Positions 46,337 to 49,881 of a DNA stretch of 64,000 bases are shown here, piece after piece. Where the stretch lies: positions 7,744 through 71,743 of the forward strand of contig JACRKZ010000102.1 in the NCBI GenBank assembly GCA_016235455.1, read 5' to 3'. The translations under genes and the position numbers were made by a program. Source of the stretch: Armatimonadota bacterium (GTDB lineage Bacteria; Armatimonadota; UBA10988). Within the stretch, counting starts at the first letter, position 1; each line of letters opens with the position of its first letter. The notes beneath the pieces were generated by a model. It did not search any database and had not been told where the DNA came from. It saw only the letters and a list, made by a program, of their open reading frames with translations.

Positions 46337-46918
46337 ATGCACGCCGAGCAGAATCCCACAACCCGAGACGCGGCTGCGTTCGAGGCGGCTTGTGCGCAGT
46401 GGCGTGGCGAGCTGCAGCGGCTGGCGCTGGGCATTCTGCGCCAACCCGACACGGCCGACGACGTGGTGCAGGAGGCGTTGCTGCGGCTGTGGACCGCCGA
46501 CCCGCCACCATCGACCCAGGGCACGCGGTCCTGGCTGCTCAGGGTCACCACCAACCTGGCGCTCAACGCGCTGCGCAGCGCGCGCCGCCGGCCGGCCGAC
46601 CCGGTCGATCCCGCGAGGCTGGGTCTGGCCCTGGCCGCGGGCGCGGGCCTGGCGGCCGGCAGTCAGCCGCCGGCCACGCCGCATCAGGCATTGGTACGCG
46701 CCGAGACCGACGGCCTGTACCGTCGCGCCCTGGCCGACCTGCCGCCTGCTCAGCGGCAGATCGTGTCGCTGGTCTACGAATCCGAGATGCGCCTGCGCGA
46801 TGTGGCGGAGGCGCTCGGGGTGCCCGAGGGCACCGTCAAGTCGCGGCTGCACGCCGCCCGCGCCAAACTGTCGCGCCGCTGGCGCGAACTGGCCCCCGAC
46901 TGGGAGGATGAGTCATGA
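46337..46918 (+). CDS. ECF (group 4) sigma-70 family RNA polymerase sigma factor
   Basis: ATG 46337 (the track ORF starts at GTG 46313). Region 2: ADDVVQEALLRLW, SWLLRVTTNLALNALRSARRRP. Region 4: LPPAQRQIVSLVYESEMRLRDVAEALGVPEGTVKSRLHAARAKL. Confidence 0.9.
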   Translation: MHAEQNPTTRDAAAFEAACAQWRGELQRLALGILRQPDTADDVVQEALLRLWTADPPPSTQGTRSWLLRVTTNLALNALRSARRRPADPVDPARLGLALAAGAGLAAGSQPPATPHQALVRAETDGLYRRALADLPPAQRQIVSLVYESEMRLRDVAEALGVPEGTVKSRLHAARAKLSRRWRELAPDWEDES

Positions 46919-49881
46919 ACCCCATTCCGCCAACCCCCTGGCACGCCGCCTCGTTTGACCACTGCCTGCGCGGCAGCCTCCCGCGGCTTCTTGCCGAGCG
47001 ACTGCCGTTGAGCGGTTACCACGTCGCGCCCGGCGAGGACGGCCAGGTGCGCGTGACGGTGACCGTCGACGCGGCCGCCGCCGTCTACCACCTGCCGGCG
47101 CCCACGCCGGACGGCGTTTTCCACACGCCGCGCGGACCGCGCGTGGTCACGCCGTTGGTGGCCCATGACGATCTGGCCACGGCGGCGGTGGCCTGCGTGG
47201 GCGAGCAGTTGGCCACCATCGTCGAAACGCGCCTGGGCGTCGCGCCGGCCGACATCCCCTGGGACGAGGCGCTGCTGCGCGCCTGGCTGCCGCTGGACGG
47301 TTGGCTGGCCGAGTTGCTGGCCACCGCCGCGCCGCTGGACGAGCGCAATCTGCTGGCCCGCCTGACGCATCTGCGGCGCATCCGCGTGACCGCCATCGGG
47401 CCCGACGGACCGATCCTGCTGCCCGGTCACTGGGGCCGGGTCTGTCCCGTGGAGTCGCCCGAGGGCGAGAACCTGGGCCGGGTGCTGGTGCTGGCGCGCG
47501 GCGCCGGCATCGCCCACGGCCGTATCCTGCCCGCCGGCGCCGAGCCCGCGGAGCAGCTCGGACCTGGCGCGGCCTGCATCCCGTTCCTGCATCACGACGA
47601 CGGCGTACGCGCGCTGATGGGCGCCAACATGATGCGCCAGTGGCTGCCACCCGAGGCGCCGGAGCCGGCGCTGGTGGTCACCGGCCTGGAGCCCGGTGAG
47701 CCGGCGCTGTGGTGCGGGCGCAACCTGCTCACCGGCTACCTGGATGTGGGCGCCGACACCCACGAGGATGCGCTGGTGGTCAGTGCCTCGGCCGCCTCCC
47801 GCCTGGGCCAGCAGGCGCCGCTGGAGCCCGGTGACAAGCTCAGCAACCGCCACGGCCAGAAAGGCGTGGTCAGCGCGATCTGGCCCGACGCGGCCATGCC
47901 GCGGCTGGCCGACGGCACGCCACTCGACCTCGTCGTCAGCCATCTCGGCGTGCAGACCAGGCTCAACCTCGGCCAACTGCTGGAGGCCGTCGCCGGCCGG
48001 CTGGCCCGCGCGGAAGGCCAGGCCGTGGCAGCGCCACCCTACAGCGGGCCGAGCGTCGACGACCTGCGCCAGCGGCTGCGCGCCGCAGGCCTGCCCGAGG
48101 ACGGCATGGAGCGGCTGAGCCTCGACGGCGCGGCGCTGGAACTGCCGTCGACGGTCGGCTACGTGTACTGGGGCAAGCTCTACTTGCGCGCGGCGCCGGC
48201 CCTGCACAGCCAGCCCGCGGGCCATGCCGGCGAGCGCATGGGGTGGCTGGACCACGCTTGCGTGCGCGAGAGCGGCTGCCGCGCCATCCCGGCCGAATGG
48301 GGCGGTCTGGGCTCGGTGGCACGGCTGGCACCGGGCGAACTCGCCGAGCTGCTGGCCGCCGGCGAGCCGCCACCACTGGGTCCGCCGACGCCCTGGCTGG
48401 CGGCGCTGACGCGGCGCCTGGCGGTGCTCGGCATCGGCGTCGAGATCGACAGTGCCGGCCTGCATTTCGGGCTGCGTGAGCCGGACGACGCGCTGGAACT
48501 GGCCGAGCCGGTGCCGCATCCGTGGCACCGCGACCTGCTGCTGACCCGCCTGGGGCCATGGAGCGGCGACGCCTGGGAGGCCACCCTGGCCGCTAACGCC
48601 AGGTTGGCCCGGCTGCGGGCCGAGGCCGCGCCCGACGCCTTGCTGCAGCCCGCGCGCGGCGCGCTGGCCAGCGCCATCGAGGCGCTGGCGCGGCGGCTGG
48701 TGCGCCGCGAGCACCTGTGCGCCGGCGACCGCGTGGCCTACAGCGGTCGTGCGGTCATCGCGCCCGGCGGCGACCTGTGCTGGGACCAGGTCGGCCTGCC
48801 GCGCGACCTGGCGGAGCCGTTGTTCGCGCCGCTGCTGGCCCGGAGCGGCGAGACGGACTTGGCGGCGGTGATGGCGCGGCACTGGCTGTTGGTGACCCGC
48901 GCGCCGGCCGTGGCGGCCTCCGCTCATGTGGCGCTGCGGCCGGTGCTGGTGCCCGACCGCGTCATCCGGCTGCATGCGCTGACGCTGATGATGCTCAACG
49001 CCGACTTTGACGGTGATCAGGTGGCGGTGATGCTGCCGCTCACCGCCGCCACGCAGGCCGAGGCGGCGCAGCGGCTGAGCATCGGCGCCCACCTGGAGCG
49101 CGATTCAGGCTTGCTGGGCTCGCTGCTGCCGCCCATGTCGGCACGCTGGGGCCTGGCCTGGCTCAGCCTGACCACCGCCGGCCGGCAGCAGATCGCCCAC
49201 CTGCTGGGCTTCGAGCTGCCCGACGATGGCCACTTGACCCGCGCCGGCCTGCTGGAAGCCGCGGCGCAGATACGGCTGCGCGACGGCGTGGACGGCCTGA
49301 TGGGCACTCTCGACGCGTTGACCCGGCTGGGCTTCGCCGCGGCCCGGCGTAGCGGCGCGTCGCTGGCGCCGTTCGCCGGCACCACGCGCGCCCTGCCGCC
49401 GCAGCCGCAAGACGATGATCGCGTGGCCTGGGCGGCCTACGCCGAGCAACTCGTCGAGTGCCTGCGGGCCGTGGAGGACTATGCCAACCCCGACCTCGGG
49501 CCGCAGATCCTCGCCGTCAAGTCCGGCGCGCGCGGTACGTGGCGCTTCTTCGAGCGGATGCTCGGCGGCCAGCTCCTACCCGATGGCGCGGCCGGGCTGA
49601 CCCCGCAGAGGCATTCGCAGATCGAGGGCCTGAGCCCCGAGGAGTACCGCCTGCGCCTGCACTCTGGCCGTAGCGCGCTGGCCATGTGGCTCCAGAGCTG
49701 GACGGCCACCTGCACCAGCATCCGCGAGGGCGCCGGCCCGCATGGCTTCGGCGTGCTGGCGCGCGCCTGCCACTCGGCGCAGCCGGGCGTCATCTTCGCC
49801 CGCGCCGCGCTCACCGGCGAGTGCGACCCCCTGGCTGACGCCGCCAGCCGCCTGTTCGTCGGCGTCGCGGACCGCGGGTAG
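46915..49881 (+). CDS. Miniature collinear RpoB-RpoC (beta-beta') fusion: single-polypeptide two-barrel RNA-polymerase-like protein (988 aa)
   Basis: The ATG overlaps the sigma gene's stop (ATGA, 46915-46918), with GGGAGGA 6 nt upstream. Beta motifs in order: [113 protein letters not shown]. Beta' motifs in order: [62 protein letters not shown]. Confidence 0.85.
   Translation: [988 protein letters not shown]

Follow-up and report, generated by a model that had tools for sequence, protein, structure and literature searches.

An ECF sigma factor gene paired with a predicted single-chain miniature RNA polymerase in bacterial chromosomes

The beta (RpoB) and beta' (RpoC) subunits of the RNA polymerase (RNAP) found in bacteria are two chains of about 2,750 aa in total, and in Helicobacter and Wolbachia they are fused, beta C-terminus to beta' N-terminus, into housekeeping proteins of about 2,800-2,900 aa containing all the modules (NF007172 and NF011417). 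YonO of the Bacillus prophage SPbeta carries its two barrels on one chain of about 100 kDa and has no homologue of the trigger loop, and it is a processive and efficient DNA-dependent RNAP (PMC5467207); it has a handful of active-site residues in common with cellular RNAPs and no known sigma partner. The K2ORF6p/K2ORF7p RNAP of the yeast cytoplasmic linear plasmids (pGKL2) is a beta-beta' fusion without lid, rudder, and many peripheral domains (PMC6211774), and was called unique among RNAPs when described (PMC6211774; PMC2919709). Almost the whole clamp of K2ORF6p is missing, probably including the coiled-coil (PMC6211774). This enzyme belongs to a eukaryotic virus-like element of viral ancestry, has the end of beta' as a separate subunit (ORF7), and is described with an upstream conserved sequence (UCS) promoter element and no reported sigma. 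The viral non-virion RNAPs of the phiKZ/AR9 jumbo phages, with beta and beta' split into four polypeptides, have a dedicated promoter-specificity subunit that is not recognisable as an ECF sigma. On the side of regulation, ECF sigma/anti-sigma operons combine an autoregulated promoter of the GAAC...GTC type, a sigma with regions 2 and 4 alone, and a second gene overlapping the sigma stop codon.

The locus presented here has the layout of such an operon, but the product of its second gene has no anti-sigma domain and is instead derived from the RNAP core, with the active site intact. It lies in a 64,000-nt stretch (hereafter, the window) of contig JACRKZ010000102.1 from the Armatimonadota bacterium assembly GCA_016235455.1, and all its features are on the forward strand. 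A sigma gene (46337..46918, 193 aa, sigma2 and sigma4 domains alone) is followed by the gene of the polymerase-like protein, a single-chain miniature beta-beta' of 988 aa (46915..49881). The sigma TGA (46916-46918) and the polymerase ATG (46915-46917) form an ATGA overlap (46915-46918), and direct reading of the sequence places a Shine-Dalgarno GGGAGGA (46902..46908), within the 3' end of the sigma gene, 6 nt from that ATG; the ORF, the overlap and this element had all been reported in an earlier note on this DNA and are confirmed. Third-position G+C is high in the pair (0.92 and 0.85), thus both ORFs are real genes, and they form an isolated two-gene operon, with one flanking gene divergent and the other convergent.

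An ECF-type promoter, GAAC-N16-GTGTC, is found at 46293..46317 (-35 GAAC at 46293-46296, -10 GGTGTC at 46312-46317) and is the single match to this motif across the 64-kb window. Since this conserved promoter covers the alternative GTG at 46313, the previously assigned ATG at 46337 is the correct sigma start. In 71/77 loci, across phyla, the same motif is present in the 200 nt that precede the sigma start, with a 16-nt spacer in 68 of these 71; the consensus is TGAACttt...CGGTGTC.T and the operon motif TGAAC-N16-GTGTC, a geometry ordinary for ECF sigmas. Where the sigma is non-adjacent (L018, L093 and L112), and also in L025, which has its sigma about 690-790 nt upstream, the promoter sits straight before the polymerase gene. 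A search for a sigma-70-type promoter in 46100-50200 found none, and neither did a search for a second target promoter. The predicted promoter should be of the type that the partner sigma reads, and it should drive the polymerase-like gene.

The upstream gene product matches Pfam Sigma70_r2 (2e-12) and Sigma70_r4_2 (2e-15), as well as TIGR02937 (80 bits, cutoff 43), and on these profiles it is a genuine ECF sigma, of ordinary sequence and with SigL-like relatives. Sigmas scoring at least 93 bits are paired with a polymerase gene, whereas those that follow in the ranking (80 and 69 bits) lack one, which places the paired sigmas in a dedicated clade. Behind the nearest ECF sigmas outside this clade, small overlapping ORFs come instead of a polymerase gene, which backs the remark that the polymerase occupies a slot usually taken by an anti-sigma.

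The RpoB-like and then RpoC-like motifs listed in the earlier note are all present, at the coordinates given there, and collinear with Escherichia coli beta and beta'. Pfam matches exceed the gathering scores (RNA_pol_Rpb2_6 4e-29, Rpb1_2 1.2e-16, Rpb2_3 1.1e-8), a PDB sequence search returned RpoB (1e-39) and RpoC (1e-17), and the AF2 model has a pLDDT of 90 and a pTM of 0.88; both double-psi beta-barrels are matched collinearly and with high significance, by HMM as well as by structure. In the HMM alignment the protein, which is 36% of the length of beta and beta' combined, follows beta 471-580, 649-707, 786-822, 1054-1148 and 1177-1341, and then beta' 77-130 (weak), 266-513, 587-639 and 723-798. 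It opens with a family-specific helix and beta-sheet domain (residues 1-140, 46915..47334), probably what is left of the beta1 (protrusion) domain. The fork/Rif-region, region E (NMxRQ) and region F (ED, the Mg-B ligands) come next (47335..47814, the first three beta segments), and directly behind them the flap (beta 823-1053) is cut out. The beta double-psi beta-barrel, with its motif at 47830-47865, continues through the beta C-terminus (47815..48474, covering Rpb2_6 and the last two beta segments).

In the beta' part, the clamp helices, a coiled-coil hairpin (residues 552-597, 48568..48705, aligned to beta' 266-309), open a 1.3e-42 alignment to beta' 266-513. The model shows this hairpin as H552-569 and H574-595; P573 and L584 are invariant, and N561, R566, L576 and L595 nearly so. 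In bacterial holoenzymes the beta' clamp helices are the main docking site of sigma region 2. The rudder (beta' ~310-327) is an alignment gap, followed by switch-2 and the catalytic double-psi beta-barrel (48724..49104, the Rpb1_2 match), which contains NADFDGD at 48997-49017, and by the F-loop (SGARG) with the bridge helix (49495..49740, the 723-798 segment), 33 residues long in the model (H908-940). The 46-residue C-terminal tail (49741..49878), three short helices in the model secondary structure, has R950, A951, F961, A964, A965, E969, D971, L973 and G983 invariant; a tail this short cannot house a canonical trigger loop or jaw. A resemblance of the tail to beta' region H, seen by eye, was unsupported in a profile search against shuffled controls. 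The earlier description of the catalytic core thus holds for the listed motifs, while the trigger loop, which it did not mention, has no detectable counterpart in the protein.

Compared with RpoB/RpoC, the mini-polymerase has identical catalytic motifs and keeps both barrels, fork, switch 2, F-loop, bridge helix, clamp core and clamp helices, but it lacks most of beta 1-470 (the N-terminal half, with lobe 2), the flap, the beta' zinc domain, lid, rudder, trigger loop and jaw, as well as the lineage-specific inserts. It scores far below the RpoB/RpoC equivalog cutoffs (153 against 801 bits, 76 against 963 bits), presumably needs no alpha or omega, and, unlike them, is not universal: a set of 185,579 species-representative genomes gave at least 233 matches. 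The Helicobacter and Wolbachia fusions have the same order, whereas the mini-polymerase is reduced (131-139 bits, cutoffs 5,372 and 4,632). Unlike YonO it aligns with the cellular enzymes almost over its full length, and it is chromosomal and sigma-paired rather than prophage-borne; it is also fused, in contrast to the jumbo-phage enzymes. As to K2ORF6p, a likeness drawn from published descriptions, the mini-polymerase keeps the clamp helices, is one chain and resides in bacterial chromosomes. The earlier note can be refined here, in that K2ORF6p (PMC6211774) is a precedent for a miniature beta-beta' fusion, one for which use of a sigma is not reported.

A homologous sigma lies directly upstream on the same strand in 80/82 loci with upstream DNA available, so that the pairing, whose conservation among homologues had been proposed as a check, is essentially fixed across the family. 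Stop and start codons overlap in 30/80 loci (20/80 with the 4-nt ATGA type), and an overlap or a gap of at most 30 nt is seen in 54/80. Distances among the sigmas track those among the polymerases (matrix correlation r = 0.89), which points to co-inheritance of the two genes across phyla. Strict co-translation is not obligatory, because the unlinked loci exist.

Conservation was counted over 34 homologues, 41-67% identical to the window protein. The Mg triad (D697, D699, D701), the beta-barrel residues G306, D307, K308, R312, H313 and G314, R241, and G905 in the F-loop/bridge region are found in 34/34; K316 and R662 (equivalent to beta' R425) in 33/34, D285 and R919 in 32/34, E284 in 30/34, and N695 (equivalent to N458) in 29/34. 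The Mg- and NTP-contacting residues are all kept, invariant or nearly so, and this pattern suggests selection on catalysis across the family. The argument that intact catalytic residues favour an active enzyme over a pure decoy is strengthened by this invariance. Those refuting checks of the earlier note that computation could address all went in favour of its reading.

The explanation that we favour, to which we give about even confidence, is that the module consists of an ECF sigma and a sigma-dependent minimal RNAP, with activity predicted from the sequence. The host core enzyme with the same sigma would provide the first expression; sigma region 2 would then dock on the retained clamp helices in a 1:1 stoichiometry, helped by translational coupling, giving a two-protein holoenzyme, with alpha and omega dispensable, that would start RNA synthesis at TGAAC-N16-GTGTC promoters, its own included. 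By capturing the sigma, the mini-polymerase would limit its use by the host, and so would take over the buffering role of the anti-sigma in ordinary ECF operons. Being without trigger loop, lid, rudder and RNA-exit channel, it should behave as a simple transcriptase of low fidelity, insensitive to signals for pausing or termination, like YonO, an efficient single-chain two-barrel RNAP that offers by analogy a precedent for activity without a trigger loop. The clamp helices stay although almost all other peripheral modules are gone, which we count in favour of sigma docking; the yeast plasmid fusion, not known to use a sigma, has by comparison lost most of the clamp and probably its coiled-coil (PMC6211774). 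The locus is a self-contained two-gene module, predicted to be autoregulated, with the polymerase a radically reduced single-chain derivative of bacterial RNAP, and it hints that a second, pared-down transcription apparatus may exist in some bacteria.

Several losses stand against a sigma-dependent mini-RNAP. The flap-tip helix, to which sigma region 4 is anchored in every known holoenzyme, is gone, and so are the zinc domain, the lid and the rudder, which form the path for RNA exit that the ECF sigma2-sigma4 linker follows; reading of the -35 element at canonical spacing is therefore unexplained. Retention of the clamp helices is not specific evidence of sigma binding either, since NusG/Spt5 bind there too in cellular RNAPs, and inter-protein covariation is only suggestive (clamp helices in 10/60 top pairs versus 3.3 expected, from 57 sequences and with incoherent sigma partner positions). 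The unlinked loci and the failure to find a second target promoter also weigh against it, and the ordinary promoter geometry and sigma sequence fit a sigma that serves the host core enzyme alone. There is a tentative alternative, with perhaps half the weight of the favoured one, in which the sigma, with the host core, merely switches the operon on and the mini-polymerase is active without it; the output might be RNA on single-stranded or RNA templates, priming of DNA synthesis, or R-loops or double-stranded RNA under stress. The standard ECF type of promoter and sigma and the invariant catalytic residues agree with it, as does the promoter-polymerase wiring that stays when the sigma is non-adjacent, which makes the regulatory tie independent of co-translation. 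With lobe 2, the flap, the zinc domain, the lid and the rudder gone, most of what is needed to anchor sigma4, melt a promoter and separate RNA from DNA is missing, and the catalytic core that stays is open, as in QDE-1 and YonO-type enzymes. However, such a regulator leaves unaccounted for the conserved clamp-helix hairpin among the few peripheral elements kept, the near-universal and often translationally coupled pairing, and the dedicated sigma clade co-diverging with the enzyme, and it names no restraint for a positively autoregulated sigma without an anti-sigma.

A restraint is what a further, unlikely reading supplies, with the protein as an RNAP mimic that mainly sequesters the sigma through a copied core docking surface, and that would free the sigma to the host core once its RNAP-like pockets bind a signal, for instance nucleic acid, nucleotides, or a toxin or antibiotic aimed at RNAP, RNA synthesis not being the output. 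A positively autoregulated operon needs a brake, no canonical anti-sigma domain or other conserved partner was found nearby, the gene sits in the slot of the putative anti-sigmas of the nearest ECF relatives, the clamp helices are kept, and in most loci the two genes overlap or lie close together, which favours making their products at roughly 1:1. Yet a pure decoy needs no intact barrels, invariant Mg triad, lysine/arginine NTP contacts and bridge helix across phylum-level divergence, no RNAP-derived anti-sigma is known, and 988 aa is a costly decoy next to the 80-250 aa of usual anti-sigmas. Least probable by far is a YonO-like RNAP of a mobile element or prophage, or a decayed or misassembled housekeeping rpoBC, a reading already largely refuted. 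In its favour, the family dendrogram does not group members by phylum, a polyphyly that implies old horizontal transfers, and other single-chain two-barrel RNAPs are known from phages and plasmids (PMC5467207, PMC6211774). However, the flanking genes are of ordinary chromosomal kinds and change from lineage to lineage, and the flanks inspected showed no phage or integrase genes; searches of 50,697 phage records, of 72,556 plasmids and of IMG/VR gave no full-length member; PADLOC gave no matches, and PHROG gave generic beta/beta' families alone. The family is cellular, not viral. A literature search found no description of family or module, which is widespread in bacterial chromosomes yet undescribed. 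A decayed or misassembled rpoBC, a possibility raised before, is ruled out by a discrete family under strong purifying selection, whose active site does not vary and whose members come from at least nine phyla (nine among the matches listed, at 37-66% identity to the window protein); its ORFs are intact at about 1,000 aa and lie in several cases on complete chromosomes of 4-8 Mb.

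In the window, whose G+C content is 70%, third-position G+C picked out two co-directional plus-strand genes, an ECF sigma factor gene at 46337-46918 (or from 46313, with an alternative GTG start) and, at 46915-49881, the gene of a 988-aa polymerase-like protein (database record HZB16_16775). The ATGA overlap described in the earlier note is real, the polymerase ATG lying on the sigma TGA, and the sequence GGGAGGA can be read 6 nt upstream. Its neighbours, both on the minus strand, are a beta-helix/GH141-like gene (43484-46267), which diverges from the pair, and a URO-D-like gene downstream (49989-51251), which converges on it. 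All the RpoB- and RpoC-like motifs that had been listed by eye are present in the 988-aa translation, at the coordinates assigned to them.

The Pfam domains of the 988-aa protein were found in the order Rpb2_3, Rpb2_6 (4e-29), and Rpb1_2 (1e-16), with Rpb2_6 and Rpb2_3 exceeding the gathering score, and among PDB chains the protein matched RpoB (1e-39) and RpoC (1e-17). Both halves of a two-barrel RNA polymerase (RNAP) were recognized: on the beta/Rpb2 side, the double-psi beta-barrel with the GDK...RHG.KG lysines, the ED ligands of Mg-B, and the fork; on the beta'/Rpb1 side, the barrel with the NADFDGD Mg-A triad, the NRAP arginine, and the bridge helix. Furthermore, a family profile derived from 34 homologues was collinear with segments of E. 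coli beta and then of beta'. The Pfam, PDB, and profile comparisons agree with the earlier proposal of an RpoB-RpoC order in a single chain. The profile aligned to beta residues 471-580 (fork and Rif region), 649-707 (NMxRQ), 786-822 (ED Mg-B ligands), and 1054-1148 and 1177-1341 (from the barrel to the last residue of beta), then to beta' residues 266-513 (clamp helices, switch 2, and NADFDGD; 1.3e-42) and 723-798 (F-loop and bridge helix). Weak matches were obtained at beta' 77-130 and at beta' 587-639, the latter yet above shuffled controls.

Large parts of the cellular enzyme have no place in this alignment. Counterparts to most of beta 1-470 were not found in the family profile, and comparing the first 100 residues of the protein with E. 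coli beta gave nothing significant. In place of beta 823-1053, which comprises the flap and SI2, ~18 residues separate HEDAL from GDKLSNRHG. On the beta' side, residues 1-76 and 131-265, with the zinc-binding domain and the lid, are likewise unrepresented in the profile, the rudder falls within an alignment gap, and no counterpart was found to the trigger loop, SI3, and jaw (beta' ~800-1300), the bridge helix being followed by a 46-residue tail. This C-terminal tail (...RLFVG) had been matched by eye to beta' region H, an assignment that we discarded as unsupported in a profile search against 200 shuffled controls.

The AlphaFold2 model of the 988-aa protein, computed with the 34-sequence alignment, has a pLDDT of 90 and a pTM of 0.88. 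It contains a bridge helix of 33 residues (908-940) and a helical hairpin at residues 552-595, the position where the clamp helices map. In the structure analysis, the matched parts jointly cover ~954 of the 988 residues; predicted structures of viral proteins gave poorer matches, the best at 1e-16, and these to generic subunits only. From the last structural matches, residues 1-140, which show no sequence similarity to beta, may be what is left of the beta1 (protrusion) domain, and the model and the alignment gaps together suggest that no vestige of the trigger loop is left. Of the two docking sites for sigma factors in holoenzymes, the beta' clamp helices, which receive sigma2, are represented by the alignment of beta' 266-309, the modelled hairpin, and invariant or near-invariant positions, and the beta flap-tip helix, which receives sigma region 4, is missing. 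Sigma binding by the clamp-helix element is putative; the element itself is present by these comparisons. The protein is a reduced bacterial-type RNAP core with an intact active site and retained clamp helices.

Catalytic positions are highly conserved within the family. Of 34 diverse members, 34/34 keep R241 (equivalent to beta R678), the GDK/RHG motif, and the Mg-A triad; 33/34 keep K316 (beta K1073) and R662 (beta' R425), 32/34 D285, 30/34 E284, and 29/34 N695 (beta' N458). Judged from these alignments, the pattern is as expected from selection on ribonucleotide polymerization, which a binding decoy would not need.

The upstream gene was correctly called an ECF sigma factor in the earlier note. 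Its product has the domains of ECF (group 4) members of the sigma-70 family (Sigma70_r2, Sigma70_r4_2, and Sigma70_ECF), with regions 2 and 4 only, and scores 80.2 bits against TIGR02937 (cutoff 42.9). The linkage of the two genes, proposed as a property to be sought in homologues, proved to be widespread. An ECF sigma gene lies directly upstream, among otherwise unrelated neighbours, in all four contigs inspected by hand, which belong to different lineages, and a homologous same-strand sigma gene lies just upstream in 80 of 85 polymerase loci (84 loci and the window). Three loci (L030, L031, and L035) are not assessable, as their sequence begins at or within ~50 nt of the polymerase start, and in a fourth (L082) the polymerase gene lacks its 5' end and the relevant upstream DNA is absent. 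Only in L018 is the upstream DNA present and an adjacent sigma gene absent. The sigma stop and the polymerase start overlap in 30/80 loci, 20 of which have the 4-nt overlap of the window; the gap is up to 30 nt in 24/80 and 34-286 nt in 25/80. In the locus L025, the sigma gene (2576-3187) lies ~790 nt upstream of the polymerase gene (3878-7099), and a 148-aa ORF in the opposite orientation (3264-3710, minus strand) sits between them.

The two partners have also diverged together, with a Pearson correlation of 0.89 between sigma and polymerase pairwise distances and similar mean identities (48% and 50%). By sequence similarity, the partner sigmas form a dedicated clade, and the closest named relatives of the window sigma are SigL-like. 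The partner sigmas share a conserved block, 'qW.g.G...WL.riatNlALN.LR' (residues ~56-75 of the window sigma), and their sigma2-sigma4 linker (residues ~105-115) has a conserved Trp and Pro, 'p.W.....P'; the window sigma itself lacks this Trp. Such a motif might indicate where the linker touches the mini-polymerase. When covariation was scored as mutual information with APC correction, the top 60 pairs contained ~3 times as many clamp-helix positions as expected, a result obtained with 57 sequences only and with incoherent partner positions on the sigma side.

When the sequences preceding the sigma genes were aligned, the pattern TGAACttt-N-CGGTGTC.T emerged, in short GAAC-N16-GTGTC, a putative promoter of the classical ECF type. 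It occurs in 71 of 77 loci, with a spacer of exactly 16 nt in 68, and several of the apparent misses are due to mis-set start codons. The end of the -10 element precedes the start codon by a median of 24 nt. The copy in the window, at 46293-46317, is the sole match in 64 kb, and no sigma-70-type promoter was found at the window module. Where the sigma gene is not adjacent (L018 and two metagenomic loci, L093 and L112), the same promoter stands directly before the polymerase gene, and in L025 each gene has its own copy (at 2506 and 3814). This retention argues that sigma-dependent expression of the polymerase gene is conserved even where the linkage is broken. The metagenome scan with a strict Poribacteria-type promoter, TGAACTTTT-N11-GGTGTCATT, returned 57 matches; nearly all were chance occurrences in AT-rich DNA, without a sigma gene downstream, and only L093 and L112 were informative. 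On these comparisons we regard the association of the mini-polymerase with a private ECF sigma and promoter, and its likely regulation by them, as obligatory, though L018, L093, and L112 are unlinked. Around the module we found neither a third gene nor a downstream non-coding element conserved across phyla.

The word-indexed search retrieved 662 homologues of the 988-aa protein. The best 120 of these are 988-1,079 aa long, align over their full length at 40-100% identity (40-47%, except for the identical record and one 66% relative), and are unnamed or labelled only 'hypothetical protein' or with Pfam domains. In the exhaustive profile search, the family forms a discrete group of ~120 clusters at 50% identity, fragments included, whose full-length members score >880 bits. 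The next tier, at ~450 bits, consists of beta-beta' fusions of 1,600-2,800 aa. For two intermediate-sized fusions, P0258 (1,613 aa) and P0264 (1,966 aa), the alignment to the family profile (positions 300-770) continues unbroken through the beta-to-beta' junction; they could be partly reduced relatives or represent the ancestor type of the 1,000-aa family. Scanning one genome per GTDB species with family-specific peptide patterns, we found at least 233 encoded relatives, in phyla that include Armatimonadota, Chloroflexota (five classes), Planctomycetota, Poribacteria, Latescibacterota, Hydrogenedentota, Verrucomicrobiota, and Bacillota (Limnochordia); members from Gemmatimonadota came from the word-indexed search. 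Many copies sit on complete chromosomes of 4-8 Mb; OZ252149.1, OZ242335.1, OY762266.1, and OZ244235.1 are examples of complete chromosomes with the module. In a distance dendrogram (UPGMA only, and thus rough), the nearest neighbour shares the phylum in 38/45 cases, yet the phyla are polyphyletic, which suggests a long vertical residence with old transfers.

Neither a mobile-element enzyme nor decay of a housekeeping gene copy is a credible explanation of the protein. It scored 153 bits against the RpoB equivalog TIGR02013 (cutoff 801) and 76 bits against the RpoC equivalog TIGR02386 (cutoff 963), and the equivalog cutoffs for RpoB, RpoC, and RpoBC were missed 5- to 40-fold. The rpoB and rpoC genes are universal bacterial markers, and a canonical copy is expected in the same genomes; none was found in the window or in the 4-8-kb flanks of the loci. 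We rejected a decayed or misassembled rpoBC, which the earlier note had named as a reading that would overturn its proposal. A prophage RNAP was likewise rejected. Searching 50,697 phage and 72,556 plasmid records by tblastn gave only partial matches to canonical rpoB/rpoC, and IMG/VR gave seven weak partial matches to large, split subunits of giant-virus or jumbo-phage type, without a sigma. One of these viral contigs (L145, UViG_3300047160_035186) encodes a beta-beta' N-terminal fusion in a 1,805-aa open frame (2686-8100, stop to stop) and, in a separate 595-aa frame (8968-10752), the C-terminal part of beta', with no sigma detected nearby. PHROGs returned generic beta/beta' families only; among the anti-phage defence models of PADLOC, the polymerase-like protein had no match and the sigma only marginal helix-turn-helix matches.

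The clamp helices are the main docking site of sigma region 2 in bacterial holoenzymes. We propose that the partner sigma may bind the retained clamp helices of the mini-core, and that the two would form a two-protein holoenzyme starting at TGAAC-N16-GTGTC promoters, the first transcripts being supplied by the host enzyme with the partner sigma. By capturing the sigma, the mini-core would also act as a brake in place of the missing anti-sigma. From the comparisons presented here, we give this reading an even chance. However, the mini-core has neither the flap tip, which anchors sigma4, nor the RNA-exit path, the promoter and the sigma are wholly ordinary in look, NusG also binds clamp helices, and no further target promoters were found, the window having a single copy, the loci no systematic extra copies, and the metagenome scan no additional target. 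Sigma might instead be a regulator only, with the mini-enzyme acting without it, which we consider unlikely, if still worth serious attention. Quite improbable, in our judgement, is an RNAP-mimic anti-sigma or sensor. The sigma search that set the dedicated clade apart found a polymerase-like gene of 1,067 aa behind a 93-bit match; behind the next ECFs (80 and 69 bits), the place where an anti-sigma is usually encoded is taken by small ORFs (123 and 223 aa) that overlap the sigma gene. The Pfam matches of the 988-aa protein (E up to 1) are to RNAP domains only, with no anti-sigma domain of the ASD, zf-HC2, or RskA type among them.

Should the two-protein holoenzyme exist, some free-living bacteria of at least nine phyla could possess, next to the housekeeping RNAP and independent of it, another autonomous transcription machine, in which a 110-kDa single-chain beta-beta' catalytic core and a private ECF sigma would serve a promoter class of their own (TGAAC-N16-GTGTC), a possibility that we place slightly short of even. 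According to the textbook view, bacteria have one RNA polymerase core, reprogrammed by sigma factors; such a machine would overturn this rule and be the smallest sigma-dependent RNAP known. The chance that the module is something categorically new in function, a second autonomous sigma-dependent bacterial polymerase, is substantial. A chromosomal sigma-paired minimal core would be a natural experiment on which parts of the 400-kDa enzyme sigma-dependent transcription can do without, having no alpha, omega, flap, lobe 2, lid, rudder, trigger loop, or jaw, and it would make testable the form of a primitive two-barrel RNAP with an initiation factor. Polymerase, sigma, and promoter, ~3.6 kb in all, could serve synthetic biology as a compact orthogonal set. 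The rival readings would be new as well: an anti-sigma derived from an RNAP core would be the first of its kind, and the alternative would be a new stress-induced nucleic-acid polymerase.

Known reduced polymerases differ from this module. The 988-aa protein did not fall into the YonO/QDE-1-like clade, which has a phage/prophage or eukaryotic RNAi context. YonO is a single-chain two-barrel enzyme that lacks a trigger loop and yet is an efficient, processive RNAP (PMC5467207), and the yeast-plasmid K2ORF6p, which fuses beta and beta' in ~1,000 aa and lacks lid and rudder, supports in vivo transcription (PMC6211774). The latter (pGKL2 ORF6) is also a miniature fusion, but on a eukaryotic plasmid, and the phiKZ and AR9 nvRNAPs are also reduced cores with their own specificity subunit, but in phages. 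Unlike the module described here, none of the three is known to be paired with a bona fide sigma-70-family factor or to be a conserved chromosomal module. In the full texts searched, a scope that excludes most subscription-journal papers, we found no description of the sigma-polymerase family, and the main text of the ECF reclassification paper does not mention Rpb, RpoB, or RpoC neighbours (PMC7826278).

Some features of the surroundings deserve a note. A URO-D-like gene occurs directly downstream of the module in the window and a URO-D gene within 6 kb in one other locus (L004, 15073-15129), and PNP_UDP_1 genes lie downstream in L003 (9751-10518) and L004 (14202-15056); this recurrence may be a coincidence, and the ORF clustering did not flag either as conserved across phyla. 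The URO-D-like gene of the window and the divergent ORF at 51115-52149 (plus strand) have 137 nt in common at their 5' ends although the coding signal is good in each, and at least one of the true start codons probably lies downstream of the listed one. The window flanks encode glycoside hydrolases, beta-helix proteins, a multihaem c-type cytochrome (52376-53656, plus strand), and, adjoining it, a full-length bacterial serpin (53760-55091, minus strand; Pfam Serpin 8.5e-104). Two ORFs on the minus strand, of 675 aa (11486-13513) and 617 aa (61563-63416), have strong coding signal and no Pfam match. Large secreted-type carbohydrate-active proteins are encoded at 18573-22127, 28128-30755, 33279-36443, 37700-40405, 43484-46267, and 57613-60576, and the dense set in the window comprises Laminin_G_3, NPCBM/melibiase, beta-helix/GH141-like, GH88, and alpha-L-rhamnosidase proteins; their number suggests a polysaccharide-degrading lifestyle for the organism.
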